Source of the DNA: a virus
Length of the DNA stretch: 29,064 nucleotides
Reading direction: 5' to 3' (one strand)
Virus genome (UHGV): UHGV-0076264
Under the pieces are notes generated by a model. It had not been told where the DNA came from and ran no database searches. It was given only the letters and a program-made list of their open reading frames with translations. A program made the translations under genes and the position numbers. Below are positions 5,705 to 23,948 of this stretch, one piece after another (position 1 is the stretch's first letter; every line of letters starts with the position of its first letter).

Positions 5705-8356
5705 ATGTCTGTGAGCTGGACTAAAGCTGATTTTTTTAAGTGCGCTTTGCAGGTAAATCCTGCGGGTTACAGTAAGTATCGCGGGAAAGAATCACTTAGC
5801 GAGGATACCTACAATCAGAAGCTGTTGGAGTCCTGCCTCGAAGCTGGTATACAGATTGTCGGTGTTGCGGACCATGGTGCTGTTAATGCTGTAGACAGGA
5901 TTCGTCAGCTCTTTAAGGAACATGGTATTGTCGTTTTTCCTGGATTTGAGATCTGCTCGAGCGAAAAAATTCATTTCGTTTGTTTGTTTGATGAAAACCG
6001 GACAGTACAAGAATTGGAACGCTGCTTGAGCAATCTGGGGTATGAAAATCCCGATGATTGCATTTCCCCTTCAAGGCTCAGCGCCATACAGATTATTGAA
6101 AAAGTAGAATGTTTGGGGGGATTTATTTTCGCTGCACATAGCACGAATGATAATGGCGTGCTGAAATGCCGTATGAATCATATATGGAAAGAACGTGGGT
6201 TGTTGGCGGCGCAGATTCCAGGAACTGTCGATGACTTGAAAGGAGTTGAGGATGATTTTTATCGCAAAGCTATCCTGAACAAACTTCCTGACTATCGTCG
6301 CGAGCGTCCTATTGCCATTATCAACGCGGCAGATGTTGCCCAACCAGAGGAAATTAAAACTCCGGGCGCATCCTGCCTGATAAAAATGACTCGGCCATGC
6401 TTCAGTTCATTTAAACAGGCATTTTTAGATCCAGAGTCACGAGTGCGTCTCAACGCAGATAAGCCACATTGCTATGCTTCGGCAATTGAAAATATTCATT
6501 TTACTGGTGGATATCTGGACGAAACCAATATCACCTTTTCTGACCACCTCAATGCTGTTATAGGTGGGCGTGGGACAGGTAAATCGACTTTGCTGGAGGC
6601 CATTCGCTTTGCTCTGGGTAAACAGCCTTTTGGTGATTCAGCACAAAAGCAACATAGTGCAATTATTAAAACTAACTTAGGGAACGGTACGCTGGTTCAA
6701 CTACAGGTTCGCTCTGCTATGATGCAAGGCCGTACCTTTACCATAAGTCGCAAATTTGGCGGGAAATCCATTGTAACAGACAGTGAAGGGAAAGTTTCAT
6801 CTTATACCCCAGATGATTTACTTCCTAGGTTGGAATTGTATGGGCAGAACGAAATTTATGAAATGACCCGCGATATTCATAGTCGTAATCGTTTGGTTGA
6901 GAGATTCTTGGAAGGAGATCATAGCAAGTACGATGTGATAATCGATAAGGTCTTGTCACGCTTGGAAGAGAGTAGCATTACTATCCTAAATGCTCTTGAG
7001 CAAAAGGCAGAGATAGAACTTGAAGTAGCACGATTGCCGAAACTACTGGAGCAGGCAGAGCAATTTAAACAGCTTGGCCTGGATGAAAAACTCAAAATTG
7101 TTCCTTTACTGGAAAAAGAGAAGCAGCTTAGCTTACGTCATCAGGAAGAATTATCTAGGGTGAAGGATGTTCTTCAGAAACTAAAAGACAGCCTGCCTGA
7201 CCTCGCTTATCTTGGCGATGGCGTGATAAATGTCATGCCTCACCACTCTCTTTTTCTCCAGCAACGTGATGTACTCCAACGAGCACAGGAGCAATTGTCA
7301 ACACTAGTTCAACATATTGATGAGACCCTTCAGCGGTCATTTGCGGAACTTGCTCCTTTACAACTTGAGTTATCAGATCTAATCGGTGCAGAAGAAGCTC
7401 AGCTTGAAAAAGCCTTTAAAGATATTCCAGCCAGCCAGGGAAAAAGTGGGCGACAGATTGGCGCAGAGTATCAAATATTGTTACGTCAAATTGCTTCTAT
7501 TCGCCCTAAAGCAACGGAGCTGGAGAACTGGCAAAAGCAACTTGATGAGCTGTACCAGCAGCGTAAAAGACACCTTCTGGAACTTATTCAGGCTCGTTCT
7601 CAACGTTCTGCTGCATTGGCAAAATCCGTCAAGCGCTTAAATAGAAGACTGGATGAAAAAGTGCGACTCAATTTGCAGCCAGAAGGTAACCGTCAACCCC
7701 TGTTGCATTTTCTGGAGCAATGTAATCTGGAAGGGGTAGGCTCACGACGCCTCGCTTGGGTATTGGAGCATGATTTTTCACCGGAAAATCTGGTTGAGAG
7801 TATCCGCCTTGGTGAACAAGCATTACATAATGCCGGGTGGGGAATTACACCAACAGTCATCCAGGCATTATTGCGGTTGAGCGAAAAGCAGCTTCTAGAA
7901 CTGGAAGCATTATCATTACCGGATACGATGCAAATTGAGCTGAATGTCATGCATGACGGTGGTGGCGTACTTTGGCGCCCTATCGATGAGCTATCGACTG
8001 GGCAGCAGTGTACTGCTGTACTGCATTTATTGTTGTTAGATAATAAGGACCCACTGATCCTCGATCAACCTGAGGATAACCTTGATAATGCATTTATTGC
8101 AGAGCGTATAGTGACGGAACTGCGTAGGGCGAAGCTGTCCCGGCAGTTTTTATTTGCCACACATAACGCTAACATACCAGTTTTCGGTGATGCTGAATGG
8201 ATTGGTGTGTTGAGTGTGGAAGAGGGGAAAGGGCGTATCCTTCCTGAACAGCAAGGGGCGATTGATCTACCTGAAATCCAGTGTCTGGCGGCGAATATCC
8301 TCGAAGGTGGTCAAAGTGCCTTTAATCAGCGCCGGGAAAAATATGGATTCAAATAA
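5705..8356 (+). CDS. PHP-like phosphoesterase domain fused to Rad50/SbcC-like ABC ATPase with coiled-coil insert, 883 aa; candidate single-protein anti-phage nuclease (Ppl-like)
   Basis: N-terminal PHP-like motifs (VGVADHG, FPGFE, FAAHS); Walker A GGRGTGKST; long heptad-rich middle; ABC signature LSTGQQ; Walker B LILDQPEDNLD; H-loop FATHNAN; GGAG-like RBS before ATG 5705. Confidence 0.85.
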   Translation: MSVSWTKADFFKCALQVNPAGYSKYRGKESLSEDTYNQKLLESCLEAGIQIVGVADHGAVNAVDRIRQLFKEHGIVVFPGFEICSSEKIHFVCLFDENRTVQELERCLSNLGYENPDDCISPSRLSAIQIIEKVECLGGFIFAAHSTNDNGVLKCRMNHIWKERGLLAAQIPGTVDDLKGVEDDFYRKAILNKLPDYRRERPIAIINAADVAQPEEIKTPGASCLIKMTRPCFSSFKQAFLDPESRVRLNADKPHCYASAIENIHFTGGYLDETNITFSDHLNAVIGGRGTGKSTLLEAIRFALGKQPFGDSAQKQHSAIIKTNLGNGTLVQLQVRSAMMQGRTFTISRKFGGKSIVTDSEGKVSSYTPDDLLPRLELYGQNEIYEMTRDIHSRNRLVERFLEGDHSKYDVIIDKVLSRLEESSITILNALEQKAEIELEVARLPKLLEQAEQFKQLGLDEKLKIVPLLEKEKQLSLRHQEELSRVKDVLQKLKDSLPDLAYLGDGVINVMPHHSLFLQQRDVLQRAQEQLSTLVQHIDETLQRSFAELAPLQLELSDLIGAEEAQLEKAFKDIPASQGKSGRQIGAEYQILLRQIASIRPKATELENWQKQLDELYQQRKRHLLELIQARSQRSAALAKSVKRLNRRLDEKVRLNLQPEGNRQPLLHFLEQCNLEGVGSRRLAWVLEHDFSPENLVESIRLGEQALHNAGWGITPTVIQALLRLSEKQLLELEALSLPDTMQIELNVMHDGGGVLWRPIDELSTGQQCTAVLHLLLLDNKDPLILDQPEDNLDNAFIAERIVTELRRAKLSRQFLFATHNANIPVFGDAEWIGVLSVEEGKGRILPEQQGAIDLPEIQCLAANILEGGQSAFNQRREKYGFK

Positions 8357-8359
8357 CAA

Positions 8360-9240
8360 AGAATTAGGCTGTCTCCCTTAATTACGTAACCGTTGATAAA
8401 AGAGTCGGATGCAGCCCAGTTTCACCATCGCCAGATAATTTCTTGCCGTTTTGTCGTAACGTGTAGCGATGCGGCGGTATTCTTTCAGGTGACCAAAGCA
8501 CCGCTCAACGACGTTGCTATTGCGATACGCATCGCGATCAAGCCGTGCTCGTCCAACCGATGCCATTTTTTCATTTGATTTTCGGGGGATGACTGCCTTT
8601 AAGCCTTTATTTTTCAGCTCGTTGCGCAATGTGTGTCCGGAGTACGCTTTGTCGGCCAGCACAACATGACCACGGCGTTTTATGCAACCGTTCTGACGCT
8701 GAACGCCAATGCCGTCCAGAAGTCGTTGCGCAAACTGGCTTTCATGAGACTGCCCGGGGCTTAGCACGATATTTAACGGGAGGCCGCTTCCGTCTGTTGC
8801 CAGATGGATTTTGGTGCCAAAACCGCCTCGAGAGCGACCCAGCCCATTATCTTCGTCGATATCGGGATGTTTTTTGAGCTCCGGCGGCGCATTTTAGCGC
8901 CCGGATATTACTGCCATCCAGCGCTGTGGCAGACCAGTCAACAAAGCCGTTCGCATCAAGTCGTGAAAGCAATCTGTTAAAAATGATGTTAATCACGCCT
9001 GACTTTGACTACCTGTTAAAGCGGTTATTAACGGTTTTCCATGGCCCATATCGTTCGGGTAAATCGCGCCATGGTGCGCCGGAACACAACACCCAGAACA
9101 TGCCGTTGATGATTTTACAATGCTCTGCCCATGGGCGCCCGGCCTGTCGTGTGGCAGGTTCAGGGGGCAACAAGGGCTTGATGATGGCCCATGCTTCATC
9201 GGGGAGGTCGTAGCGAGTCATGGTTCAATATGTTGTAGAA
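8360..9240 (-). mobile_element. IS5-family insertion sequence (IS427/IS1031-like group), ends approximate
   Basis: Transposase in two frames: N-terminal part 9009..9221 with PWRDLPERYG motif and C-terminal DDE part 8378..8767, consistent with a frameshifted IS5-family transposase; inverted-repeat ends not resolved. Confidence 0.6.
8378..9221 (-). CDS. IS5-family DDE transposase, split over two frames (programmed frameshift or disruption)
   Basis: ORFs 9009..9221 and 8378..8767 on the same strand in different frames with about 240 nt between them. Confidence 0.55.
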
Positions 9241-9597
9241 ACAGACCGTTACTATAGCTCAAACTATTACGGGACACAGCCTAGGAGTCAATCATGCTTA
9301 AAAACGAATTATTGGATATCATTGCCAACGGGAGAGCTCTGTAGTGGAGAACACCAACGTATATTGCTTTCTACTATCGTGATTTTTTCCTAATATTCAC
9401 ATTTCGGTGGCTCTGATTTGTTATGAATTAACAACCAGTTATGTTCGCGAATCATTGATTTTCACCGGTAACACTCTTTCTGCCCGATGCTGCTTCGCAG
9501 GAAGTGCCTCACACGTCAATCAATTAGTGTGTGGCGTTATTTCAGCCCTAGTCGTATTTAAGCTACTATTACTTAAAATTACGATAGTCATGGTGTA

Positions 9598-9630
9598 TAT
9601 AAAAGGCCTTCCTATACCAGAGAAGGCCCT
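9598..9630 (-). terminator. Intrinsic terminator downstream of the YagK-family gene
   Basis: Stem GGCCTTC/GAAGGCC (9604-9610 / 9621-9627) followed on the minus strand by TTTTAT. Confidence 0.5.
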
Positions 9631-9637
9631 TGCAAAT

Positions 9638-10264
9638 TTACAGATCGATTTGGCTGCAGCCGAAGTTACGGCCTCCTTCACCAAATACTTTGCTCTCGAC
9701 TTTGGTGAGATAGTCCAGCCGGGTTAACAGCGCCTGGTAGTTTTGCTGGAAGTCAGGACTGTTGGTATCCAGTACGTACTTACAGTTTTCAGGAAAATGG
9801 ACCAGACTTGGGTGATCGTCTCTCTCCAGTCTCAGGGCGCTGTACCACGCTCCCGTAATCATCCCTCTCAGGTTATCGTGCTGATCGTAATCCCCGAGGT
9901 GGTAGTAAGCGTCTTTGTTGAACAACAGGCAAATGTGGTAGTGGCATTTACCCGACTCAGAATACTCTTTCGCCCATATAATAAATAAAGAGCAACGGTA
10001 GGTGCGTTTACCTTCACGCTCCTTACGGGTACGGTCAGCCTCCAGTTTAGCTCTGAGGGAATCACGCATCCGGGATATCTCCCCAGGTTCCAGATTAGGG
10101 AAGCAACAAATATTGTCACCGTTATCGACTATTTTAGGATAGTGGAGATCGACACGTACCGCCGTTAACCTAGGATAACGGTTAGTCAAATAACATAATA
10201 ATTTATTGATCTTGATCTGATATTCGAGGATATGTACACCATGAGTACCTTGATATGTTTTCAT
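9638..10264 (-). CDS. yagK: YagK/YfjJ-family protein (inovirus Gp2-like domain), 208 aa
   Basis: Length and motifs (YPRLTAVRVDLHYP) match my recollection of YagK/YfjJ family proteins of CP4 islands; not verified by search. Confidence 0.6.
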   Translation of the reverse strand: MKTYQGTHGVHILEYQIKINKLLCYLTNRYPRLTAVRVDLHYPKIVDNGDNICCFPNLEPGEISRMRDSLRAKLEADRTRKEREGKRTYRCSLFIIWAKEYSESGKCHYHICLLFNKDAYYHLGDYDQHDNLRGMITGAWYSALRLERDDHPSLVHFPENCKYVLDTNSPDFQQNYQALLTRLDYLTKVESKVFGEGGRNFGCSQIDL

Positions 10265-10542
10265 AATATATACCTGTATTTGGTCCTGCGGTTTATAGCA
10301 GACCGTATAGGGATGCCATACAGGCAGGGCTATTCCTAGTTACTGTTGTAGGTATATATTGGTGTCAGATCTTACTACGCACATACTGATCTGATTACTA
10401 CCCTTACTGGTTAATATAGGTAGTAAGGGGATATAACACTATTATATAATATATAATACCTATCCAACATCTAAATTTGAGACGAAGGTAGCCCCAGCCT
10501 GTGATGGCTGTTAAAAAGTTACTCTGCAATTAGCTTCTGGAA

Positions 10543-11163
10543 TTAACCGATGATTCCGTTATTCCAGTGCCGCTTCACAGTCGATAAACTGATACTCAAT
10601 TTCTTTGCGATCTCAGCCTGAGTAAATCCACCTTTCTTTAGTATTGTGATATCACGTCGGTATTTGCTTCCCTCCTTTCGTCCTAATTTTTTCTTAATAT
10701 GTCGATATCGGCTTTTAGTTGATTTAAGATTGTGAATGTCAATCGTATCCTGACGAGCAATCAAAAAAGACAAGCAACTTTCAGCAGAAGGCTCTATCCT
10801 TGAAGCTGGATGGTAGCTGTAGATAAAAATCTCTTTTTGAAGGCAAAAAAATAAAATATTCTGTAAGTCCTCCACAGTTCCGCCAAGACAGCTTAGATCT
10901 GGAATTACAAGCGTGTCCTGCCGGTTCATTTCATGATGAATCAATTGTCTGAGTAAACGTTGCTCTGAAACAACCTCTTTAATATCTATCTGCTCGATCA
11001 CAACATGTTCAGGTAGAATATTAAATTTTTGGCATATCTCAGTAAGTGAGTGATGATCTGTAATGCTTTCTTGCTGTTTGCTTCTGCATATGGTGTAAAA
11101 AAATGAACGCATTTGATGCACTCCGGTGTCATAAATTATTTTTTGATACCTGAATAATGTCAT
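10543..11163 (-). CDS. DNA-binding protein with C-terminal Hin/resolvase-type HTH, no catalytic serine motif, 206 aa
   Basis: C-terminal GGFTQAEIAKKLSISLSTVKRHW; N-terminus lacks the resolvase Ser motif; AT-rich coding sequence. Confidence 0.55.
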   Translation of the reverse strand: MTLFRYQKIIYDTGVHQMRSFFYTICRSKQQESITDHHSLTEICQKFNILPEHVVIEQIDIKEVVSEQRLLRQLIHHEMNRQDTLVIPDLSCLGGTVEDLQNILFFCLQKEIFIYSYHPASRIEPSAESCLSFLIARQDTIDIHNLKSTKSRYRHIKKKLGRKEGSKYRRDITILKKGGFTQAEIAKKLSISLSTVKRHWNNGIIG

Positions 11164-11268
11164 TTTGTATAAAAAACAATCAAAAATGGAGAGGTGATTG
11201 CCAGTGATACTTTGACTGGTAAAGTATTATTTTACCTCTCATAATTGTTTGTCCTTCTTTGTTACCTC

Positions 11269-12123
11269 TTAGGTTCTGCTCTCCTGCGAGTATGGGTTTA
11301 TGATGATGTCATCCGGTGCATTAACACGGTAGGAAGCATCTGTTTTGCGGAGCACTGGCAGCATAACTGTCATATCATTGACATGGTAAATATCAATCCA
11401 ACAAACAACCGGATAAGGCATAACAATCCTCTTTCTTCTAAGAACTTCATTTATCCCGAATATAATTAATTGGGATGTTGGCAAGAGTAGAGCCTGCCCG
11501 ACATCAAAGTAATAATCCTCAAAGGTTGTTCTATGAATAAGAATAATATTTGAATATCCTGAGACACTTTGATTCTTTACATTAAAATGTCGTTGATTGT
11601 AAATGTAAATGGCTTTTTCCATATCGTAATTTTCCCTCAGCGAGGATAGTCTTTCACGTATAACCGTTTTTTCATCTTTTCCCATGAATTTATCATTAGC
11701 GTTCAGTTGAAAGTAATCTGCAATGGGGATTTTTAACGGACTAATGATGTTCGTTTTCCAGATTAACGAGCAGTACTCTTCCAGAGTTACTTCTGTTTTA
11801 CCTCGACTTAGATTAATGCTTTCTCTTATAGAGAACTTTAACAGGTCATTTTTTATTTCATTTATTGACCAGTTATGACGATTGCATTTTTCTAATATAG
11901 GGGTAACAAAATCCATAACTTCCGCTATTGCGGAAGATTTAGATTGTTGTGTTAGTTCGGCATAAAGATCAATTGCTTCTAATGACGATTGATTTTTGTA
12001 CGTGAATGAGCTTTTTTTTATGGGAGTAGTCTGTACTACCTGTGACTCATTGTTTTTGTCTTGACAAGATTTCTTTCCAGGTAGAATGTTGCTCATCTCA
12101 AAATTAGTAACACAATTAGACAT
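11269..12123 (-). CDS. Hypothetical protein, 284 aa, AT-rich
   Basis: Long ORF with strongly AT-biased composition; position and length resemble yagM of CP4-6 (recalled). Confidence 0.5.
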   Translation of the reverse strand: MSNCVTNFEMSNILPGKKSCQDKNNESQVVQTTPIKKSSFTYKNQSSLEAIDLYAELTQQSKSSAIAEVMDFVTPILEKCNRHNWSINEIKNDLLKFSIRESINLSRGKTEVTLEEYCSLIWKTNIISPLKIPIADYFQLNANDKFMGKDEKTVIRERLSSLRENYDMEKAIYIYNQRHFNVKNQSVSGYSNIILIHRTTFEDYYFDVGQALLLPTSQLIIFGINEVLRRKRIVMPYPVVCWIDIYHVNDMTVMLPVLRKTDASYRVNAPDDIIINPYSQESRT

Positions 12124-12239
12124 TTTTAAGGAAACCTCTCTTATCTCAATATAAAACTATTATCTTAAATTTCTCAGTGTTGCCCCATTTTTCTCGGGGC
12201 AACATCGCTATAAATCAATAAAATTAAATCTGTAATTTA

Positions 12240-12464
12240 TTACAGACTTTCTCGTACAGAAAATGTATCTATAAAATCGAGGACCTCTTTACGTAACCAG
12301 TAATGGCGGCCATTGATTTGTTTTGGGCGAGGTAGCCCCTCAGGCAATTTGTCCTGACAAAGCCATTTACGAATAGTTTGAGATTTGTAGCTAAGGATTT
12401 TAGCTAACTCAGCTGTTGAAACGAGCTGTGATTGAGATGTATCCGGGAGTTTGAATGCGCTCAT
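12240..12464 (-). CDS. AlpA/Xis-family small DNA-binding protein, 74 aa
   Basis: HTH-like segment STAELAKILSYKSQTIRKW and conserved GRHYW motif typical of AlpA-like excisionase/regulator proteins. Confidence 0.6.
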   Translation of the reverse strand: MSAFKLPDTSQSQLVSTAELAKILSYKSQTIRKWLCQDKLPEGLPRPKQINGRHYWLRKEVLDFIDTFSVRESL

Positions 12465-12901
12465 TTTGCCACCTCAGTGATTGAGATATTGGCAAAGAAA
12501 GCTTTAAGCATTATTGAATTAGTCGGGGGAGTAATAAAGGTAGAGGGAAATGTTTCGGGCTCGGGGTCAGGGTCATTACCATCACCTGAATCTGATGATA
12601 AGGCACTTTTAGCTGATTTAGCCGTACTGTGATGCGATCTGGATGCCTGATTTTTACATGACATCAGACGCGCGAGAAAGTTAGTAGCATTTTGCATTGT
12701 TTGTTTAAAATGTAAAATTTTCAGTTTGGCGCACGCGACAGACTTGCGAAGAGCTGAATATGTTCCTTTGAGATACTCGACAACCTCTTCCATGGACGCA
12801 GAATCGTTAAAGGATTGAGTTGTTTTACTTGAATTAAAACACCAGCGAGCTCTGATAGTTGCCAGAGTGGGTTCTATGGATACAGTTGCTGGGGTTGCCA
12901 T
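12461..12901 (-). CDS. Hypothetical protein, 146 aa
   Basis: ORF whose stop overlaps the start of the AlpA-like gene by 4 nt; no recognisable motif. Confidence 0.45.
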   Translation of the reverse strand: MATPATVSIEPTLATIRARWCFNSSKTTQSFNDSASMEEVVEYLKGTYSALRKSVACAKLKILHFKQTMQNATNFLARLMSCKNQASRSHHSTAKSAKSALSSDSGDGNDPDPEPETFPSTFITPPTNSIMLKAFFANISITEVAK

Positions 12902-13017
12902 TGGCTTATCTCCTGTGTAGTTGTTGTATCATTGACTAAACTGTGTATTACGATACATGAAAATCTATCTTGATCAATAGTTGATGATTTTTTGTAATAT
13001 ATTGATTTTTAATGGAA

Positions 13018-14421
13018 TCAATGCATATCAACGTTGTTTTTTATGGTAATACCTGCTTCATTTAAGATCCATGTCTCAATTTTCTCGTGCCATTTTCGTA
13101 AAAGATCTAACGGACGACGGCGATAGTGTTTTTCGGCAAGAGCGCTGGGTTTGTGTCCCATAATTTGAGCAACAATACCTGTGGGAACTTCAACCCACTC
13201 GGCCAAAGTACCAAAACTACGACGCAAACCGTGAAGGCTGATATGTGGTAACTCAGCTCGCACTAACGCTCTGTTGTGCGCTGAACGCGGTTCAATAATT
13301 TTGCCACTTTTACTGTTACTTTTGAAAACCCACCCCTCCTTATTTACGTCAGAATTTGGGAATTGCGCTAGCGCATTTAACAGCTCAGAAACATAAGGAG
13401 TGAGAGGGATGGTACGTTCGCCTTCGATCTTGTCTTTAATTCTCATACTTGACCATTTGAAATCTACGTCAGACCACCGAAGTGACGCAATTTCTTCACG
13501 CCGTGCACCGGTGAGCAAAAGTACCTGGAGATAGGCCGATGCAATGGGATTATTGAGGCTACGCACAGCACTGAACCAACTTTTTAACTGTTCTTTTTGT
13601 AAGCAATCTCCCGCTTTACTTGCTGATACTGGAACCATTTTTCTCACGTTATGATCTTGTGCAAGGTCGCCATGGATTATTCCCTGATATTTTTTCTGGT
13701 AATTAGCCCATTTGATAAATGCACGCAACAGACGGTAGGCATGAGCAGTGACGGTAGGCCTATTTTGTCTCTCTTTACTTAGCCATGCGGTAATGTTCTC
13801 TGGTGTTAGTTCCGATAAGGGGAGGTCGAGTAAGCTAGCCAATGGTCCAGCTGAGGTTGGGCCCCGGCCTCTTTTTTTACTTTCCCCCCCACGGCTGGAC
13901 AAGTTAATGTGGTCGGCAATGTAGCGTGCAGAGTAAGGCCGTTTAGTTTTTGCGCTGATTCCGGTTCTCAATTCTTCAAGGTAATCTTCCCAAGCGCTTG
14001 TGAAGGTTATCTTTGTTTTACGAGATTCAGCCTGCTGTGATTCCGCTTCAGCAATTTTTTCTGCCTTAGCTATACGCGGATCTATCCCAGTATCGATTAA
14101 TGTTTGCAGCCGCCTAGCTTCGGCCCTGGCATCATCAATCCTCCAATCGTTAATGTTGCCAATGGTCATGCGAAGGGTTTTTCCCGCATATACGCTTTGG
14201 AACACAAAAGCTTTTGTTCCGCGAGTTGCCCGGCATGCCAGAGTTGTTACATCCGCATCCCAAAGAAATGCTTGGTTCTTCCCTTCGGTTAAAGCAAATT
14301 TTCGAATGCGCTCGAAGGTGAGTTTTTGTCTTGGAAGTGCCATTTTAGGGCTCCAGAAGAGAAATGTTACATCACCATAATGTAACGGCTGGTGTAAGTA
14401 AAATGGGGGAATAAACATCAA
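13018..14421 (-). CDS. intF: P4-type tyrosine integrase (IntF-like), 467 aa
   Basis: C-terminal catalytic region with HGLRRSF and HKPSALAEKHYRR (R..H..R..Y tyrosine recombinase signature); 5-prime end about 100 nt from the att copy. Confidence 0.8.
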   Translation of the reverse strand: MMFIPPFYLHQPLHYGDVTFLFWSPKMALPRQKLTFERIRKFALTEGKNQAFLWDADVTTLACRATRGTKAFVFQSVYAGKTLRMTIGNINDWRIDDARAEARRLQTLIDTGIDPRIAKAEKIAEAESQQAESRKTKITFTSAWEDYLEELRTGISAKTKRPYSARYIADHINLSSRGGESKKRGRGPTSAGPLASLLDLPLSELTPENITAWLSKERQNRPTVTAHAYRLLRAFIKWANYQKKYQGIIHGDLAQDHNVRKMVPVSASKAGDCLQKEQLKSWFSAVRSLNNPIASAYLQVLLLTGARREEIASLRWSDVDFKWSSMRIKDKIEGERTIPLTPYVSELLNALAQFPNSDVNKEGWVFKSNSKSGKIIEPRSAHNRALVRAELPHISLHGLRRSFGTLAEWVEVPTGIVAQIMGHKPSALAEKHYRRRPLDLLRKWHEKIETWILNEAGITIKNNVDMH

Positions 14422-14525
14422 TGCCTGTCAATTTTTATCAACAGGTGTTTTTCATAACGCAATGTTTTATAATGAATTACTTGTTTTAAGAGTAGATTTT
14501 TAAAGGGGTAAAAATATAATAACGT

Positions 14526-14574
14526 CGCATTCGTAATGCGAAGGTCGTAGGTTCGACTCCTATTATCGGCACCA
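14526..14574 (+). repeat. Attachment-site copy: 3-prime 49 nt of tRNA-Thr(CGU) (thrW), not a complete tRNA gene
   Basis: Anticodon stem-loop CGCATTCGTAATGCG (anticodon CGT), T-arm GGTTCGACTCC and acceptor 3-prime strand TATTATCGGCACCA are present; the D-arm and 5-prime acceptor strand GCCGATA are absent upstream. Confidence 0.8.
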
Positions 14575-14588
14575 TTTAAATCAATAAG

Positions 14589-15752
14589 TTACACATCATT
14601 AGTACCTTTCTTATTTTTTGACTGGGACAAATTTGGGACCGATGGGTTCAGGATCGAGTCTATTTGCCGTGCGTGTTCGGTAAGGTGATTAGGTGCAAGG
14701 TGAGCATATCGACGAACCATTTCGATAGACTCCCAGCCTCCCATTTCCTGTAACACTGACAACGGGACTCCGGCTTGAACCAGCCAACTTGCCCAGGTGT
14801 GTCTCAAGTCGTGAAATCTGAAATCATCAATACCAGCCCGTCTCAGAGCCGCTTTCCAGGCTGTGTTTGCGTCATACCGCATCTTCCTTACTGTTGGCGC
14901 TTTCGTTCCGTCTGGTTTGGTACAGCTTTCCTTGTACACAAATACCCAACGGTGATGATTACCGATTTGTTTTTTCAATACGCGACATGCAGTATCATTC
15001 AGCGCAACGCCAATTGCGCGGTTTGATTTACTCTCTTCCGGGTTTATCCATGCCACCCGGCGCTGCATATCTATTTGTTGCCATTCAAGGTTGATGATGT
15101 TCGAGCGTCTTAAGCCTGTTGCCAGTGCAAATTCAACAACAGACTTTAATGGCTCCGGACATTCATCAATCAGCCTTTGTGCTTCATGGGGCTCCAGCCA
15201 GCGGATCCGTTTATTCTTTGGTTGAGGCACTTTAATAATTGGTGCCTTATCCAGCATTTTCCATTCACGCTCTGCGGCTCTTAGCAGGGCCTTTATAAAT
15301 GAAAGATGCGTAGCCTTCGTTGCAACGGACGCTGGTTTTGGCGTGTATTCTGGAACAGGTTTCCCTTTTTTTCTGCATGCTTCTGCCCTGAGTTTCCAGT
15401 TTTCCTCATGACGCCGGTTCGTCATTTTCTGCATTGCTGAATAAATTTTTGATTCAGTAATGTCTCTTAGTTGCATTCCTGCGAAATGTTGAAGCCAGAA
15501 TCCGATCCGGCTTTTGTCATCGTCCAGTGATTTTTTATGTGCTTTCTCTTCAAGCCACCTGACACACGCTTCCTCGAACGTTATATCAGGTATTTCACCA
15601 AGTTTGCTGACCCGCCATGCTTCAGCCTTTAGCTTGTCATGGAGTTCTGTCGCCTGCCTTTTGTCCTTTGTTCCAAGAGACTGTTTAAATCTTTTACCGT
15701 TCGGCAATGTGAAACTGGCGTACCATATTTCACCTCTGCGGAAGAGTGACAT
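14589..15752 (-). CDS. int: Phage P22-type tyrosine integrase, 387 aa
   Basis: Near-identical over its length to my recollection of P22 Int ([52 protein letters not shown]...); P22 integrates at thrW, matching the adjacent att. Confidence 0.9.
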
Positions 15753-15979
15753 TTTCTTTCCTCTGTTATGCCATCACCCGCGCTCACCTTGATAGTATGC
15801 AGCGGAGACTGAAGCGCCGCAATGCAGGCTTGTCGCGTTGTGAGGTAAGGAGATTTTGGCTTGGTTGGATCTTTACGTGTTGCCTGTAGGCGGCCTGTTC
15901 GTATCCAGTTGGTAGCGGTAGGTCTGGATATCTTGAGAAACTGACAGGCCTCATCGAGTGTGAGGCTGTATGATTCCAT
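15629..15979 (-). CDS. xis: Excisionase Xis (P22-type), about 116 aa
   Basis: ORF 15629..16009 trimmed to [33 protein letters not shown] (HTH); 3-prime end overlaps the int start. Confidence 0.8.
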
Positions 15980-16229
15980 GGTTACCTCTGCTTTTTGAAC
16001 GCATGTCACGTAACTTCTTAATGTGTTCTGCCGTTTCGATCTCTTCTGCTATCCGATCTGCATCAGCTTTATTCACAGGTTCAAAGTCATGATTAAAGCG
16101 GAACATGCTGGCGATACATGTTCTGCCTTTTCGGATGTAGTGAACTTTGTTGTGGGTAGAACGCAGGATTTTGCAGGGAGTGCCGTGGTGGTCGACGTAC
16201 CAGGTGTTAGGAAAAATGATTCTGAACAT
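15951..16229 (-). CDS. Hypothetical early-left protein, 92 aa
   Basis: ORF only; no recognisable motif; start uncertain. Confidence 0.3.
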   Translation of the reverse strand: MFRIIFPNTWYVDHHGTPCKILRSTHNKVHYIRKGRTCIASMFRFNHDFEPVNKADADRIAEEIETAEHIKKLRDMRSKSRGNHGIIQPHTR

Positions 16230-16276
16230 TTTTACACCTCAGTTGGACGATGTTGAAATTTGCTGCTTTGAGGCCA

Positions 16277-16495
16277 TCACAATCCCCATTGTTTGTTCTT
16301 AAGTTCGATCTCCTCCTGGCAACTTGCACAAGTCCGACAACCCTGAACGGCCAGACGTCTTAGTTCATCTATCGGATCGCCACACTCACAACAATGAGTG
16401 GCAGATATAGCCTGGTGGTTCAGACGACGCATTTTTATTGCTGTATTGCGCTGTAATTCTTCGATTTCTGATGCTGAATCAATGATGTCTGCCAT
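16277..16495 (-). CDS. TraR/DksA-family C4 zinc-finger protein, 72 aa
   Basis: CCECGDPIDELRRLAVQGCRTCASC four-Cys motif typical of phage TraR/DksA-like proteins. Confidence 0.7.
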   Translation of the reverse strand: MADIIDSASEIEELQRNTAIKMRRLNHQAISATHCCECGDPIDELRRLAVQGCRTCASCQEEIELKNKQWGL

Positions 16496-16593
16496 CTTTC
16501 ATTAATCCCTGAATTGTTGGTTAATACGCTTGAGGGTAAATGCGAATAATAAAAAAGGAGCCTGTAGCTCCCTGATGATTTTGCTTTTCATGT

Positions 16594-16875
16594 TCACCGT
16601 TCCTTAAAGACGCCGTTCAACATGCCGATCGCCAGGCTTAAATGAGTCGGTGTGAATCCCATCAGCGTTACCGTTTCGCGGTGCTTCTTTAGTACGCTAC
16701 GGCAAATGTCATCGACGTTTTTATCCGGAAAATGCTGTCTGGCTTTTTTGATTTCAGAATTAGCCTGACGGGCAATGCTGCGAAGGGCGTTTTCGTGCTG
16801 AGGTGTCATTGAACAAGTCCCATGTCGGCAAGCATAAGCACACAGAATATGAAGCCCGCTGCCAGAAAAATGCAT
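16594..16875 (-). CDS. Hypothetical protein (start uncertain, possibly at 16809)
   Basis: ORF only; alternative ATG at 16809 would give 71 aa. Confidence 0.3.
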   Translation of the reverse strand: MHFSGSGLHILCAYACRHGTCSMTPQHENALRSIARQANSEIKKARQHFPDKNVDDICRSVLKKHRETVTLMGFTPTHLSLAIGMLNGVFKER

Positions 16876-16885
16876 TCAGTGGTTG

Positions 16886-17077
16886 TCATACCTGGTCTCT
16901 CTCATCTGCTTCTGCTTTCGCCACCATCATTTCCAGCTTTTGTGAAAGGGATGCGGCTAACGTGTGAAATTCTTCGTCTGTTTCTACTGGTATTGGCACA
17001 AACCTGACTCCAATTTGAGCGAGGCTATGTGCCATCTCGATACTCGTTCTTAACTCAACGGGAGATGCTTTGTGCAT
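16886..17077 (-). CDS. Hypothetical small phage protein, 63 aa
   Basis: ORF with GAGG 8 nt upstream of the ATG. Confidence 0.4.
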   Translation of the reverse strand: MHKASPVELRTSIEMAHSLAQIGVRFVPIPVETDEEFHTLAASLSQKLEMMVAKAEADERDQV

Positions 17078-17228
17078 ACAGCCCCTCGTTTATTATTTAT
17101 CTCCTCAGCCAGCCGCTGGGCTTTCAGTGGATTTTGGATAACAGAAAGGCTGGGAAATACCCAGCCTCGCTTTGTAACGGAGTAGACGAAAGTGATCGCG
17201 CCTACCCGGATATTATCGTGAGGATGCG

Positions 17229-17909
17229 TCATCGCCATTGCTCCCCAAATACAAAACCAATTTCAGCCAGTGCCTCGTCCATTTTTTCGATGAACTCCGG
17301 CACCATCTCGTCAAAACTCGCCATGTACTTTTCATTCCGCTCAATCACGACATAATGCAGGCCTTCACGCTTCATGCGCGGGTCATAGTTGGCAAAGTAC
17401 CAGGCATCTTTTCGCGTCACCCACATGCTGTACTGCACCTGGGCCATGTAAGCCGATTTTATTGCCTCGAAACCACCGAGCCGGAATTTCATGAAATCCC
17501 GGGAGGTAAACGGGCATTTCAGTTCAAGGCCGTTGCCGTCACTGCATAAACCATCGGGAGAGCAGGCGGTGCGCATATTTTCGTCGCGATAGATGATCGG
17601 GGATTCAGTAATATTCACGCCGGAAGTGAATTCAAACAGGGTTCTGGCGTCGTTCTCGTACTGTTTTCCCCAGGCCAGCGCCTTAGCATTAACTTCCGGA
17701 GCCACACCGGTGCAAACCTCAGCCAGCAGGGTGTGGAAGTAGGACATTTTCATGTCAGGCCACTTCTTTCCTGAGCGGGGCTTTGCTATCACGTTGTGAA
17801 CTTCTGAAGCGGTGATGACGCCGAGCCGTAATTTGTGCCATGCATCATCCCCCTGTTCGACAGCTCTCACGTCGATCCCGGTACGCTGCAGGATAATGTC
17901 CGGTGTCAT
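17229..17909 (-). CDS. exo: Lambda exonuclease (Red alpha), 226 aa
   Basis: Near-identical to lambda Exo as recalled ([54 protein letters not shown]...). Confidence 0.95.
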
Positions 17910-18691
17910 GCTGCCACCTTCTGCTCAGTGGCTTTCTGTTTCAGGAATCCAAGAGCTTTCACTGCTTCGGCCTGTGTCAGTTCTGACGATGCGCGAATGT
18001 CGCGGCGAAATATCTGGGAACAGAGCGGCAATAAGTCGTCATCCCATGTTTTATCCAGGGCGATCAGCAGAGTGTTAATCTCCTGCATGGTTTCATCGTT
18101 AACCGGAGTGATGTCGCGTTCCGGCTGACGTTCTGCAGTGTATGCGGTATTTTCGACAATGCGCTCGGCTTCATCCTTGTCATAGATACCAGCAAATCCG
18201 AAGGCGAGACGGGCACACTGAATCATGGCTTTATGCCGTAACATCCGTTTGGGATGCGACTGCCACGGCCCCGTGATTTCTCTGCCTTCGCGGGTTTTGA
18301 ATGGTTCGCGGCGGCATTCATCCATCCACTCGGTAACGCAGATCGGATGATTACGGTCCTTGCGGTAAATCCGGCATGTACATGATTCATTGTCCTGCTC
18401 AAAGTCCATGCCATCAAACTGCTGGTTTTCATTGATGATACGGGACCAGCCATCAACGCCCACCACCGGAACGATGCCGTTCTGCTTGTCAGGGAAGGCG
18501 TAAATTTCTTTCGTCCACGGATTAAGGCCGTACTGGTTGGCGACGATCAACAATGCGATGAACTGCGCATCGCTGGCATCACCTTTAAATGCCGTCTGGC
18601 GAAGAGTGGTGATCAGTTCCTGTGGGTCGACAGAATCCATGCCGACACGTTCAGCCAGCTTCCCAGCCAGCGTTGCGAGTGCTGTACTCAT
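17906..18691 (-). CDS. bet: Lambda Bet (Red beta) single-strand annealing protein, 261 aa
   Basis: Near-identical to lambda Bet as recalled; start overlaps the exo stop in the usual ATGA arrangement. Confidence 0.95.
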
Positions 18692-18696
18692 CCGTT

Positions 18697-18993
18697 TTAT
18701 ACCTCTGAATCAATATCAACCTGGTGGTGAGCAATGGTTTCAACCATGTACCGGATGTGTTCTGCCATGCGCTCCTGAAACTCAACATCGTCATCAAACG
18801 CACGGGTAATGGCTTTTTTGCTGGCCCCGTGGCGTTGCAAATGATCGATGCATAGCGATTCAAACAGGTGCTGGGGCAGGCTTTTTTCCATGTCGTCTGC
18901 CAGTTCTGCCTCTTTCTCTTCACGGGCGAGCTGCTGGTAGTGACGCGCCCAGCTCTGAGCCTCAAGACGATCCTGAATGTAATAAGCGTTCAT
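18697..18993 (-). CDS. gam: Lambda Gam (short form GamS), RecBCD inhibitor, 98 aa
   Basis: [37 protein letters not shown]... matches lambda Gam; an in-frame stop lies 19 codons upstream of the ATG. Confidence 0.9.
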
Positions 18994-19069
18994 GGCTGAA
19001 CTCCTGAAAATGGCTGTGAAAATATCGCCCGCGAAATGCCAGGCTGATTAGGAAAACAGGAAAGGGGGG

Positions 19070-19276
19070 TTAGTGATTCAGGCCGTTACCGCGTCCGTCG
19101 AGAAAAACTTCCACGAGCAAATCACTGGTATAAGTGCGCTCGATGCCGCGATGCAGATAAAGCCGTCCGCGTAAATTAGCTGATGCAGTCCAGGTACCAT
19201 CTTTGTGTTTGACCAGCATTCCTGGCATGACCGCGCCGCGATTAACGGTCTGTGTTCCGTAATGTTGATGAACCAT
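19070..19276 (-). CDS. Possible Kil-like small protein, 68 aa (start chosen at ATG 19276 with AGGAG upstream; the ORF track extends it to 19480 from a TTG)
   Basis: Position immediately upstream of gam, with its stop inside the gam-L-homologous leader, corresponds to kil in lambda; sequence identity to Kil not confirmed. Confidence 0.3.
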   Translation of the reverse strand: MVHQHYGTQTVNRGAVMPGMLVKHKDGTWTASANLRGRLYLHRGIERTYTSDLLVEVFLDGRGNGLNH

Positions 19277-19498
19277 AAAAACTCCTGCCCGTAAGCTGGG
19301 CTGCTGAACATATAGAGACTTCTGCGCATATTCAGGCGGTGGATGGCCGCCGGTTGTCATAACTAAGCCGCCTCGTTGAAGCGACTGAGGTATGAAATGT
19401 TGAGTTAATTTCAGCTGGTCACACCGACGTTCACGCGTCCGTTTCACCCCTCGCACTCCCCGAAGCCTGCTGAAATTCAAACTGCGGATCTAAGCGGT

Positions 19499-19612
19499 CA
19501 TCGCAACGGTGAATCAGGTAGTTGCCGTATCGTTGTGTTGTTGCGATGAACTTATTTAAAACTATAGTTGTTTTATCGTCAACAACAAAAGTTGTTTTAT
19601 TGGTTGTTTTAG
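19499..19612. promoter_or_regulatory. Leftward early promoter/operator region (OL/pL-like) with cI-type half-sites and a 9-bp inverted repeat
   Basis: Palindromes built on AACAAC/GTTGTT half-sites (AACAACAAAAGTTGTT at about 19581-19596) that recur in the cI-cro intergenic region; inverted repeat CATCGCAAC/GTTGCGATG at 19499-19507 / 19540-19548. Confidence 0.5.
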
Positions 19613-19720
19613 ATATAACTGGTTGTATTTAGGATGGATTTATTTTGTGACTTGAATCGCATAGCGATAACTGAAGCGAGGTTATGGTGGTTTTTTTAAC
19701 GGTGTGTGTGATGAGGGGAG

Positions 19721-19750
19721 GGCAAAAGAAAACCCGGCACGGTGACCGGG
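19721..19750 (-). terminator. Intrinsic terminator downstream of cI
   Basis: Stem CCCGG/CCGGG (19733-19737 / 19746-19750) followed on the minus strand by TTTTCTTTTG. Confidence 0.5.
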
Positions 19751-19871
19751 ATTCTTACGCCGTTAGGTAAAGATATTATTGCGGTGGCTTAATATTACTA
19801 CCTAGAGCAAAGATAGGAATTAGTTCTTTACTGAATGAGCACAATGCCCAGTTGATAATTTTTAATTGGTA

Positions 19872-20561
19872 CTACCCATGCTTCCTATATGTCTGCGGCA
19901 TGCTCCCAATAACCTTACCGAAGATGAACACCCGGTTCATCTCGTCTTTCTCGATCGGGTCCCACGGTGAGTAGCTTTTGTTATCAGAGATGACCAGCAG
20001 CTTATCCTTCATCATTTGCAGGCGCTTTACATGGGCTGTGTCGTCGTACAGAAACGCATAGATACCATCACCGTCGAAAGATTTAACTGTGATATCAACG
20101 AACAGCAGATCACCTGGTTCGATCGTTCCTGACATGCTGTCACCACGCACGTTAATGATGCGGATATTTTCCGCCTTCCTACCATCGAACATGTGACGAG
20201 CATCGTCAAACGAGTACTCAACCGAGCGTAGAACTTCTACAAACTCACGGTTGATGACTCCCGGCCCAGCACTGACTTCTATATCAAGAACGTCAATCTT
20301 GAAGTATTTGGAATGGCTGACAGTTGATTGTATTGGTTGCACTGTACTGTCTGACATATTTCCAACGCCAGAAGATAACCATTCTGCGCGCACACCCAAA
20401 GCGTTCGCGATCTCCACGATTTTAGTTGTTTGATTAGCTTTCCCTGTTTCGATTTTCTGAATAGCAGCCTGGCTAACCCCGACCAAATCCCCAAGCGCCT
20501 TTTGTGTAAGGCCTCGCGCTAATCTGGCTTCTTTAAGTCTTTCTGAGAGTGTTGTTTTCAT
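19872..20561 (-). CDS. cI: CI-type prophage repressor (N-terminal HTH, C-terminal S24/LexA-like peptidase), 229 aa
   Basis: HTH (LTQKALGDLVGVSQAAIQKIETGK) and S24 region (RGDSMSGTIEPGDLLFVD ... VKRL); ORF trimmed to ATG at 20561. Confidence 0.85.
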   Translation of the reverse strand: MKTTLSERLKEARLARGLTQKALGDLVGVSQAAIQKIETGKANQTTKIVEIANALGVRAEWLSSGVGNMSDSTVQPIQSTVSHSKYFKIDVLDIEVSAGPGVINREFVEVLRSVEYSFDDARHMFDGRKAENIRIINVRGDSMSGTIEPGDLLFVDITVKSFDGDGIYAFLYDDTAHVKRLQMMKDKLLVISDNKSYSPWDPIEKDEMNRVFIFGKVIGSMPQTYRKHG

Positions 20562-20665
20562 AGTCCAAATGTACAACCAAGGTTTTATTTCATCAAACGA
20601 AAATGGTTGTTGACTAAAAACAACCATAGTTTTAATCTTGATTCAAATTAACCACGGAGGTTGTT
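20562..20665. promoter_or_regulatory. OR/pR/pRM-like operator-promoter region between cI and cro
   Basis: Inverted repeat TGGTTGTT-n7-AACAACCA and related half-sites in the 104-bp divergent intergenic region; RBS GGAGG before cro. Confidence 0.6.
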
Positions 20666-20896
20666 ATGAACCCAGCTATCAAAACAGCGATCAATATCGT
20701 TGGTTCACAAAAGAAACTGGGCGCTGCTTGCGAAGTTTCACAGCAGGCCGTCTATAAGTGGCTTCACAACAAAGCAAAGGTATCCCCTGAACATGTCGGC
20801 AGCATTGTTACGGCTACTGGTGGAGTAGTGAAGGCATACCAGATTCGCCCGGATCTTCCGAAGTTGTTTCCACACACCGAAAAGAACGCAGCTTAA
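20666..20896 (+). CDS. cro: Cro-like HTH repressor, 76 aa
   Basis: Small HTH protein (QKKLGAACEVSQQAVYKWL) transcribed divergently from cI. Confidence 0.8.
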   Translation: MNPAIKTAINIVGSQKKLGAACEVSQQAVYKWLHNKAKVSPEHVGSIVTATGGVVKAYQIRPDLPKLFPHTEKNAA

Positions 20897-20908
20897 ATTT
20901 CCATTTCA

Positions 20909-20922
20909 CGCTCTTTAACAAT
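20909..20922 (+). promoter_or_regulatory. boxA-like element (CGCTCTTTAACAAT) at the nutR-equivalent position, with no obvious boxB hairpin
   Basis: Match to the boxA consensus GCTCTTTAACAA 13 nt after the cro stop; no GC-rich boxB stem-loop found downstream. Confidence 0.4.
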
Positions 20923-20965
20923 AAGCAATCAACTTAACAGTCAATTCAAACTAAAGGAGTCAATT

Positions 20966-21505
20966 ATGCAACCACTTCCATACCAACAGACTAGCGGATT
21001 TAGCCCGACTGCGGTGATAAATCGTTCTCAAACAAAACAGGTGCCAGGCCACGAAAAAATCCGTGATGCCGTCCGCGCCTGGTCGGCTGTAGATAATCAG
21101 GATGTCGTTGCCACACTCATTGTGAATGAGTATCGGGAGCAGGGCGGCGGCACCATCGATTTCCCTGATGATGTCAGCCGTGCACGCCAGAAGCTGTTCC
21201 GCTTCCTCGATAACAAATTCGATTCTGAAAAATACCGAAATAACGTGCGTGAACTGACCCCGGCAATTCTGGCGGTACTACCGCTGGAATATCGCGGTTA
21301 CCTGGTTGAGCAGGATAGCTTCATGGCCAGGTTGGCTGAAATGGAAAAGGAACTCAGTGAGGCAAAACAGGCTGTCATTCTCAACGCACCACGCCACCAG
21401 AAACTGAAGGAAATTAGTGAAGGTATTGTATCGATGTTTCGTGTGGACCCAGATCTGGCTGGTCCATTGATGGCGATGGTTACTACCATGCTGGGGGCGA
21501 TATGA
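20966..21505 (+). CDS. CII-like lysogeny regulatory protein (phage CP76-type family, tentative), 179 aa
   Basis: Position directly after cro; size and composition fit the larger CII-like family; family assignment from memory. Confidence 0.5.
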   Translation: MQPLPYQQTSGFSPTAVINRSQTKQVPGHEKIRDAVRAWSAVDNQDVVATLIVNEYREQGGGTIDFPDDVSRARQKLFRFLDNKFDSEKYRNNVRELTPAILAVLPLEYRGYLVEQDSFMARLAEMEKELSEAKQAVILNAPRHQKLKEISEGIVSMFRVDPDLAGPLMAMVTTMLGAI

Positions 21506-21591
21506 CAGGTTCAGAAATGGCGAAAGCCGGTCTGCTGGAACAGAACCGACTTTCAGGTGCAAATCGTAACACACTCATTGCGGGAGGAATT

Positions 21592-22521
21592 ATGGCAAAC
21601 ACTGCTGAGATATTCAATTTTCCAGTGCCGGATGCGGCACAAAAGGAGCCGCGCGTGGCAGATCTCGATGATGGTTATACGCGCATTGCAAATGAGTTGC
21701 TGGAAGCTGTGATGCTGGCCGGATTAACACAGCACCAGCTTCTGGTCTTCCTGGCTGTCATGCGCAAAACATATGGCTTTAATAAAAAACTGGATTGGGT
21801 GAGCAACGAGCAACTGTCCGGATTGACCGGGATATTACCGCACAAGTGTTCTGCTGCAAAAAGTGTTCTGGTAAAGCGTGGGATTTTGATTCAGAGCGGG
21901 CGGAATATCGGTATTAATAATGTGGTCAGTGAATGGTCAACATTACCCGAATCAGGTAAGAAAAATAAAGTTTACCTGAAAGAGGTAAATTTACCTGAAT
22001 CAGGTAAGAAAAGTTTACCCAAATCAGGTAAAGGCGTTTACCCGAATCAGGTAAACACAAAAGACAAACTAACAAAAGACAATATAAAACCTTTTTCGTC
22101 CGAGAATTCTGGCGAATCCTCTGACCAACCAGAAAACGATCTTCCTGTGGTGAAACCAGATGCTGCAATTCAGAGCGGCAGCAAGTGGGGGACAGCAGAA
22201 GACCTGACCGCCGCAGAGTGGATGTTTGACATGGTGAAGACCATCGCACCATCAGCCAGAAAACCGAATTTTGCAGGGTGGGCTAACGATATCCGCCTGA
22301 TGCGTGAACGTGACGGACGTAACCACCGCGACATGTGCGTGCTTTTCCGCTGGGCATGCCAGGACAACTTCTGGTCCGGTAACGTGCTAAGTCCGGCCAA
22401 ACTCCGCGACAAGTGGACCCAACTCGAAATCAACCGTAACAAGCAACAGGCAGGCATGATAGCCAGCAAACCAAAACTCGACCTGACAAACACTGACTGG
22501 ATTTACGGGGTGGATTTATGA
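21592..22521 (+). CDS. O: Replication initiator O (lambda O-like), about 309 aa
   Basis: Homology to the lambda O N-terminus (VADLDDGY, RKTYG); contains internal origin iterons; start set at ATG 21592 with GGGAGG RBS rather than the ORF-track start. Confidence 0.85.
   Translation: MANTAEIFNFPVPDAAQKEPRVADLDDGYTRIANELLEAVMLAGLTQHQLLVFLAVMRKTYGFNKKLDWVSNEQLSGLTGILPHKCSAAKSVLVKRGILIQSGRNIGINNVVSEWSTLPESGKKNKVYLKEVNLPESGKKSLPKSGKGVYPNQVNTKDKLTKDNIKPFSSENSGESSDQPENDLPVVKPDAAIQSGSKWGTAEDLTAAEWMFDMVKTIAPSARKPNFAGWANDIRLMRERDGRNHRDMCVLFRWACQDNFWSGNVLSPAKLRDKWTQLEINRNKQQAGMIASKPKLDLTNTDWIYGVDL
21943..22054. repeat. Origin iterons: about five copies of the palindromic unit TTACCYGAATCAGGTAA inside the O gene
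   Basis: Direct repeats each with internal dyad symmetry, followed by an AT-rich stretch, as at lambda ori. Confidence 0.7.
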
Positions 22522-23219: not shown

Positions 23220-23518
23220 CGGGCAAAGAGGCAATTATTCATTACCTGGGGACTCATAAGAAATTCTGTGCGCAGGACGTTGCCGCGGTAACAGGCGCAA
23301 CGGTAACCAGCATAAATCAGGCTGCGGCTAAAATGGCACGGGCAGGTCTTCTGGCTATCGAAGGTAAGGTCTGGCGAACGGTGTATTACCGGTTTGCTAC
23401 CAGAGAAGAACGGGAAGGAAAGGTGAGCACGAATCTGATTTTTAAGGAGTGTCGCCAGAGTGCCGCGATGAAACGGGTATTGAGGGTATATAAAAGAACA
23501 TCAATGGGTACACAATGA
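23216..23518 (+). CDS. ren: Ren protein, 100 aa
   Basis: MTGKEAIIHYLGTHKKFCAQDVAA... matches lambda Ren; overlaps the P stop. Confidence 0.8.
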   Translation: MTGKEAIIHYLGTHKKFCAQDVAAVTGATVTSINQAAAKMARAGLLAIEGKVWRTVYYRFATREEREGKVSTNLIFKECRQSAAMKRVLRVYKRTSMGTQ

Positions 23519-23585
23519 TGAAACAGGTGAGTTGAGTTCAAACTGTAGTACAATTCTCTCCAGTTTGAACAGGAAAGAATATTCT

Positions 23586-23918: not shown

Positions 23919-23948
23919 AAATAATTTGTTTCTAAACGACTAAAATAT

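Follow-up and report, generated by a model that had tools for sequence, protein, structure and literature searches.

Introduction

As a target of integrating mobile elements, thrW is among the most used tDNA hot spots (PMC7545054). Occupation of this gene by two elements at once has been described on more than one occasion. In the laboratory, SfX followed by SfI gave a tandem lysogen of Shigella flexneri at thrW, in which SfI had integrated into the SfX attL (Sun et al. 2011, PMC3306764), and tandem prophages at thrW have been reported for E. coli O157:H7 (PMC9997748). The 46-nt attP core of these phages was defined experimentally for SfI and stated to be identical in SfII, SfV, SfX and P22 (PMC3636060). 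Beyond thrW, the Islander/TIGER work describes tandem arrays whose members each bring their own integrase together with their own tDNA fragment, oriented like the tDNA itself, with 125 such arrays among 3919 islands (PMC4383910).

Here, we analyzed a 29,064-nt stretch of DNA catalogued as the virus genome UHGV-0076264, called the window below, in which a 49-nt piece of thrW separates two tyrosine integrase genes. We are highly confident that this piece is the internal att of a two-member tandem array at E. coli thrW (tRNA-Thr(CGU)), in the order thrW, a ~19-kb CP4-6-family island, att, a lambdoid prophage and an outer 46-nt att. The locus resembles the SfI+SfX tandem in its thrW target, its 46-nt core, the family of its right-hand integrase and the presence of an internal att between members; unlike that pair, in which both members are phages with P22-type integrases, the window holds a non-phage island, the integrase IntF and a 49-nt identity block. 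With the O157:H7 case it shares two elements at thrW, an internal 46-nt att and one member with a P22-type integrase, whereas in O157:H7 the remnant carrying the P22-type int adjoins thrW, so that the order is reversed, and the partner is a genuine P4-type satellite (38% identity to P4 Int) rather than an IntF element. Compared with the Islander/TIGER arrays, the array in the window shows no difference in kind: each member has its own integrase, and the tDNA fragment between members lies in the orientation of the intact tDNA.

Results and discussion

A thrW fragment without its 5' half

The sequence at window 14526-14574 on the plus strand (CGCATTCGTAATGCGAAGGTCGTAGGTTCGACTCCTATTATCGGCACCA) is identical to nucleotides 28-76 of thrW, the reference being the annotated 76-nt tRNA-Thr beside proA in several E. 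coli genomes; its first bases belong to the 5' strand of the anticodon stem and its last to the CCA end. It is the single exact match in the window (49/49, 0 mismatches), and 100 dinucleotide shuffles gave 0 matches to the 49-mer. Nested within it, at 14529-14574 on the same strand and adjoining the 3' end of the phage integrase gene, is the 46-nt core ATTCGTAATGCGAAGGTCGTAGGTTCGACTCCTATTATCGGCACCA, identical to the published core of P22 and the Sf phages, ATTCGTAATGCG...CACCA (PMC3636060). The exact and unique copy, together with the junction alignment described below, identifies 14526-14574 as an internal hybrid attachment site.

The initial annotation had described an exact copy of the tRNA-Thr(CGU) 3' end at this place that lacks the 5' half of the tRNA, and both statements were borne out. 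ARAGORN detected no tRNA gene in the window, only 7/27 bases of the 27 nt upstream of the fragment match the thrW 5' half, and a complete tRNA with a D-arm and 5' acceptor strand was sought at the site and not found. A different reading would make the site a degenerate but complete tRNA-Thr gene or a pseudogene duplicate, not an att, and the Rfam tRNA model (RF00005) does score 29.7 bits here, just over its gathering score of 29. The Rfam match is, however, local, spanning model positions 9-63 by way of an A/T-rich pseudo-D-arm, and is without an acceptor stem; since ARAGORN returned nothing, the thrW match upstream amounts to 7/27 and the upstream sequence is itself a conserved island arm, we assign this reading a negligible probability. 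The Rfam match corresponds to window 14507-14563, that is, the tRNA fragment plus the pseudo-D-arm, and because its score lies just over the Rfam threshold, automated annotation could mis-call this interval as a tRNA or pseudo-tRNA.

The two sequences that flank the fragment belong to different elements. On the left, 14419-14525 is the island-side arm of the hybrid att, i.e., the intF-proximal arm of the island attP/attR: the same 107 nt, which differ from the thrW 5' half, precede the fragment in island-only genomes (loci L003 and L004). On the right, 14575-14588 is a 14-nt spacer and the start of the int-proximal (P') arm of the phage, a sequence that phage-only lysogens have after intact thrW (loci L002, L006 and L008-L017).

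The left half belongs to a CP4-6-family island

Window positions 1-14525 are ~100% identical over 14,525 nt to islands in strains VE-V10-F, Z0117EC0056, 1070/13 and RM9387, and constitute the right-hand ~14.5 kb of a ~19.2-kb CP4-6-family genomic island. In these closed E. coli genomes the matching islands start with an intact thrW beside proA and end with the same 49-nt fragment; the intact gene lies 4.6 kb to the left of the equivalent of the window start, in the same orientation as the fragment.

Island gene coordinates were mapped from the RefSeq annotation of the matching DNA, with Pfam and PADLOC matches added. From left to right, the mapped genes are a DUF932 gene (50-868, minus strand), a GTPase gene (3762-4637, minus), a Ppl-like/TrlF ATPase gene (5705-8356, plus), an IS5 pseudogene (8378-9221, minus), yagK (9638-10264, minus), a yagL pseudogene (10543-11242, minus), a yagM-like gene (11269-12123, minus), ykgV (12240-12464, minus), yagN, which lies between ykgV and intF in the mapped gene order, and intF (13018-14418, minus). 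The ATPase gene next to the IS5 pseudogene encodes an 883-aa AAA/SMC-like protein annotated in RefSeq as "TrlF family" and matched by the PADLOC Ppl model (E = 2e-40), and is probably an anti-phage cargo gene. The ykgV product is a 74-aa HTH_17 (AlpA-like) protein (Pfam HTH_17, E = 3.2e-07) that RefSeq calls "AlpA family transcriptional regulator" in identical DNA, making it a candidate excisionase or directionality factor of the island.

The succession yagK, yagL, yagM, ykgV, yagN, intF and then a 49-nt thrW fragment is that of CP4-6 in K-12, and the window IntF is 90.6% identical to that of K-12. In the K-12 record, CP4-6 is annotated from coordinate 262898, which corresponds to thrW nt 28 if K-12 thrW starts at 262871, as we take it to do. 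Unlike K-12 CP4-6, the window island is shorter (~19 kb) and carries different cargo, namely the Ppl-like ATPase and a Dcm/HNH pair at its left end, and it is followed by a prophage where K-12 has the yagP flank.

The island integrase gene is an intact ORF of 466 aa, called intF by RefSeq in identical DNA, with Pfam Arm-DNA-bind_3 (PF13356) and Phage_integrase (PF00589) domains; it is transcribed away from the 49-nt fragment, from which its start codon is separated by 107 nt. The initial annotation had called it a P4-type integrase transcribed away from the att. That it is an integrase and is so oriented is confirmed, and it shares with the P4 type the Arm-DNA-bind_3 (DUF4102) plus Phage_integrase architecture and an att upstream of the int 5' end (at 107 nt, vs ~150 nt between core and int in P4). 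At the sequence level, however, the P4 label was not borne out, the similarity being marginal: a BLASTP alignment with P4 Int covered 129 aa at 26% identity (E = 9e-05), with a further 28-aa patch at the N terminus, and tblastn of IntF against 50,697 phage records found no P4 match at E ≤ 1e-5. The core of P4 is located at the T-loop/3' end of its target tRNA. The island repeat measures 49 nt from the anticodon stem, vs 20 nt for the annotated P4 core, which does not agree with the short core of the P4 type.

The right half is a lambdoid prophage with a P22/SfIV-type integrase

To the right of the att lies the gene of a P22/SfIV-type tyrosine integrase of 387 aa (14589-15752, minus strand), its 3' end facing the att (Pfam Phage_integrase, E = 3e-48). 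By tblastn over all 387 aa, the protein is 99.7% identical to Int of Shigella phage SfIV and 89.7% identical to P22 Int; the identity to the partial SfII Int is 99.5%. A single residue, K382E, distinguishes it from the corresponding proteins of strains MB56 and Res13. The identification of the neighbor as P22-type thus holds, while the distance needs a small correction: with the stop codon at 14589-14591, the gap to the CCA end is 14 nt (14575-14588), the previously noted 15 being the difference of coordinates. Overlapping the int 5' end is xis (15629-15979, minus), which encodes an excisionase-like HTH_17 protein (Pfam E = 1.4e-08); the SfIV record carries the annotation "integrase | excisionase" under the match.

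Both integrase genes are intact ORFs with the Pfam Phage_integrase domain, the catalytic domain of tyrosine recombinases. The earlier description of them as two unrelated tyrosine integrases agrees with the absence of significant pairwise similarity between IntF and the P22-type Int (BLASTP E = 0.99), but the shared domain makes "unrelated" too strong a word. The two enzymes are predicted to use the same core site, as judged from the nested identity blocks of 49 and 46 nt.

Window positions 14575-29064 are ~100% identical to a 47.8-kb lambdoid prophage of strain MB56, which directly abuts intact thrW. At the far end of that prophage, 47.8 kb off and after lambda-like structural genes and Avs2 cargo, stands ATAATTCGTAATGCG...CACCA, 46 nt identical to thrW. 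On the strength of the identity to MB56, its annotation and Pfam matches, 15951-29064 represents the early and regulatory region of a lambdoid (DLP12/lambda-like) prophage. Coordinates mapped from the MB56 RefSeq annotation place exo (17229-17909), bet (17906-18691), gam (18697-18993) and a cI-like repressor gene (19872-20561) on the minus strand, and O (21502-22521), P (22518-23219), emrE (23586-23918), the ybcK serine recombinase gene (24174-25700), rusA (28046-28408) and the Q antiterminator gene (28631-29014) on the plus strand. A low-GC patch at 24001-26000 (36% vs 45-49% around it) covers the large serine recombinase gene ybcK; the gene for the emrE-like SMR pump lies just upstream of the patch, in a block that is not itself low in GC, and the emrE/ybcK layout resembles that of DLP12 in K-12.

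The int-att module agrees with those of P22, SfII, SfIV, SfV and SfX in its Int (89.7-99.7%), its identical 46-nt attP core, the abutment of the int 3' end on the core and the position of xis upstream. Unlike in the P22 and Sf phages, the module is joined here to a lambda/DLP12-like backbone, and the closest phages (PhiR34_1 and 4A7) match only from ~15484, inside int. From about that position onward, the prophage region is 96-98% identical to phage records such as these two. Specifically, for PhiR34_1, PhiR68_2 and many E. coli prophages the match (96.7-99%) starts only at query base 910, i.e., window ~15484 within int, and for phages 4A7 and Lambda_4C10 only at ~16000 (95.8%). The first ~89 int codons and everything upstream are common to the window and these matches, which differ in the C-terminal part of int and in the att, a pattern that suggests a swap of the int/att module with a break-point inside int (~15484).

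At the other end of such prophages, beyond the window, the cargo beside the phage P arm (attR side) varies by host. Among the loci compared, it comprises Avs2 plus an ABC-three-component system, retron Ec48 or a DUF262 protein (L006, positions 1-6268, from MB56; L021, 17363-19349; L031, ~10600-12489). In P22 and the Sf phages, this is where the gtr genes are located.

Junction types and break-points

Megablast of window 12500-16500 against 5426 complete E. coli genomes separated the two elements at sharp break-points. In phage-only genomes similarity begins exactly at window 14526, and in island-only genomes it stops at 14575 (14592 in cases of resemblance between native flank and phage arm), so that the 49-nt core is the whole of their overlap. 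Three junction types can be told apart. Phage-only lysogens have the thrW 5' half, the core and the phage arm (tttaaatcaataagttacacatc...); island-only strains have the island arm (...aaaatataataacgt), the core and bacterial flank; and the window has the island arm, the core and the phage arm. The last combination is supported as the product expected when one element recombines with the att copy of the other.

The ~18 nt directly 3' of the thrW core are alike in every att context, apart from a 3-4-nt variable patch, and can be written as the motif TTWAAATCAA-NNN-GTTAC. They read tttaaatcaataagttac in the phage P' arm (window 14575-14592), tttatatcaagcaattac in the left arm of the island (Z0117EC0056, locus L005, 2881-2898), and tttaaatcaagtagttac or ttaaaatcaaagagttac in the native flank (NZ_CP062811.1 after the outer att near 3816069, and K-12, locus L029, ~7256-7273). 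This stretch may be a conserved thrW trailer or a site for an integrase or host factor. We also considered that the 18 nt after the core in island-only strains (VE-V10-F, K-12) might be a deletion scar of a P22-type prophage, and rejected the idea: TTTAAATCAAnnnGTTAC and then CCCATATT also follow the outermost attR of the intact array in NZ_CP062811.1, so this is native flank, not a scar. A search for arm-type integrase-binding repeats in the reconstructed island and phage attP sites (11-mers, ≤1 mismatch, direct and inverted) returned only A/T-rich or hairpin-like matches, none of them convincing.

A variant of the internal att was seen in Z0117EC0056 (L005, 22027-22075) and in JGI contig Ga0233370_1000072 (L028, 10675-10758), where it lies beside the same island arm and has two core differences, CGGAGG...CCTCTT vs CGTAGG...CCTATT in thrW, which we read as a compensatory T-stem pair. 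After the att come a truncated P22-type int, the gene for a large reverse transcriptase and an AbiE pair. A variant T-stem on the side derived from the phage is compatible with a crossover left of the T-arm.

Complete arrays in other genomes

When a junction was counted at ≥80% coverage of a 451-nt junction probe, the intF-att-P22-type-int arrangement occurred in 8/5426 complete E. coli genomes. The full array can be followed in NZ_CP062811.1 (strain Res13-Sevr-PER07-33), which has three att copies, all in direct orientation, in the order thrW, island, 49-nt att, prophage and 46-nt att. Intact thrW occupies 3883647-3883722 and is followed by a 27-kb CP4-6-type island of the K-12 type, the internal 49-nt att near 3856601, a ~40-kb stretch comprising an SfV-like prophage and other genes, and the outer 46-nt copy near 3816069, after which the native flank resumes. 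The Int of this prophage differs from that of the window in one residue. The interpretation in the initial annotation of the 49-nt sequence as an internal att between an island and a prophage is therefore supported by the break-points, by the occurrence of each half alone at thrW elsewhere and by the full array in this genome.

Other genomes show the members in the opposite order or with different partners, and arrays with all three att copies are present among closed genomes in both orders. Loci L021 and L026 have the phage P arm and 46-nt core followed by the left arm of the island. In O157:H7 strain TR01 (L030, 19974-33300), thrW is followed by a frameshifted P22-type int with a decayed lambdoid remnant, a 46-nt att at 31908 and a satellite. 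The integrase of this satellite is 38% identical to P4 Int over 404 aa, and the satellite represents a third integrase lineage at the same thrW segment.

That the elements vary in this manner bears on the suggestion that the window is one composite element with two integrases, in which the 49-nt sequence would be a leftover inside the element that marks no boundary. Accretion is known to produce composite islands, and the island and prophage parts are contiguous here. Each part, however, is found alone at thrW elsewhere at ~100% identity and with its own att pair; the partners change, from a K-12-type island with an SfV-like prophage in NZ_CP062811.1 to an island with a truncated int/RT/AbiE remnant in Z0117EC0056; and the order of the elements is reversible, as in L021 and L026. 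We therefore regard a single composite element as extremely unlikely.

A more technical concern is that the junction was created during assembly, with sequences from two gut E. coli strains, whose thrW genes harbored the island and the prophage, respectively, being joined through the shared 49-nt repeat. The only exact source that we found is a human-gut metagenome contig, ENA ERZ918665 k127_2313 (63,383 bp), to which the window is 100% identical over 21,164 nt. The two halves of the window find their ~100% matches in different isolates, and none of the 5426 genomes in the collection is a closed genome with both window elements at ~100% identity. A scan for the exact window junction in one genome per species gave no match, and the same scan of JGI metagenomes gave one contig, which has the Z0117EC0056-type junction with a truncated integrase and variant core, and thus another prophage. 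In de Bruijn assembly, a k-mer that spans a junction must derive from real reads. The k of 127 indicated by the contig name is longer than the repeat of 49 nt even when up to ~18 nt of partly similar flank are added, the same junction type is present in 8 closed genomes, including the full array of NZ_CP062811.1, and a sequence look-up reports one further similar place besides k127_2313. Taken together, these observations make an assembly chimera very unlikely, and we retain the tandem array as the explanation of the window.

In the source genome, intact thrW should lie ~4.6 kb beyond the left end of the window and the outer 46-nt att beyond its right end, as extrapolated from the identical elements elsewhere. 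The window corresponds to positions 1982-31045 of k127_2313 in reverse complement, leaving ~32 kb more of contig to the left and ~2 kb to the right, and thrW is expected at roughly 35.7 kb of the contig.

A model for the formation of the array

Tyrosine integrases with tDNA targets provide the basis for a proposed exchange between attP and thrW. Each element would carry, besides its own tyrosine integrase, an attP copy of the 3' part of thrW, amounting to nt 28-76 (49 nt) in the island and nt 31-76 (46 nt) in the phage. Integration would proceed by a reciprocal exchange, catalyzed by the integrase, that joins attP to a copy of the thrW 3' segment in the chromosome. The first arrival would regenerate thrW on one side and leave a displaced 3' fragment on the other, and the second element would then recombine with one of the two copies, giving rise to a hybrid site whose left arm is the intF-proximal arm of the island and whose right arm is the int-proximal P' arm of the phage. 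Since island first and then phage into the island attR gives the same product as phage first and then island into the phage attL, the order of arrival is not deducible from the product.

Both crossovers probably took place in the region of the anticodon loop, given that each identity block has its start at or within the anticodon stem and extends as far as the CCA end, which also matches the anticodon-centered attP class of Islander. With the island arm to the left of the internal site and the phage P' arm to its right, neither element would have lost an arm of its own, and each should be capable of excising independently, which would restore single occupancy.

One may also ask whether the two elements are more than neighbors. 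The ~18-nt stretch and the hybrid att could couple them functionally, e.g., through phage Int/Xis co-excising the island and packaging it, or the two integrase lineages could have exchanged or co-opted one extended att module. Only the shared sequence speaks for such coupling, each element keeps its own arms and occurs alone, and we judge these readings very improbable. Either would be new if true; in the first, phage Int/Xis acting on thrW and the outer attR might let the island hitch-hike.

Conclusions

Tandem occupancy of thrW is already known from SfI+SfX and from O157:H7, and the window adds a further case, whose two component elements can both be found in public genomes at ~100% identity. 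Although real, the arrangement is ordinary and, in our analysis, opens no new question. Its value lies mainly in annotation, as it supplies an exact element boundary (14526-14574) and the predicted places of thrW and the outer att. For the biology of the site, the thrW hot spot is used by at least three integrase lineages (P22-type, IntF-type and, in O157:H7, genuine P4-type), and their arrays occur in either order.
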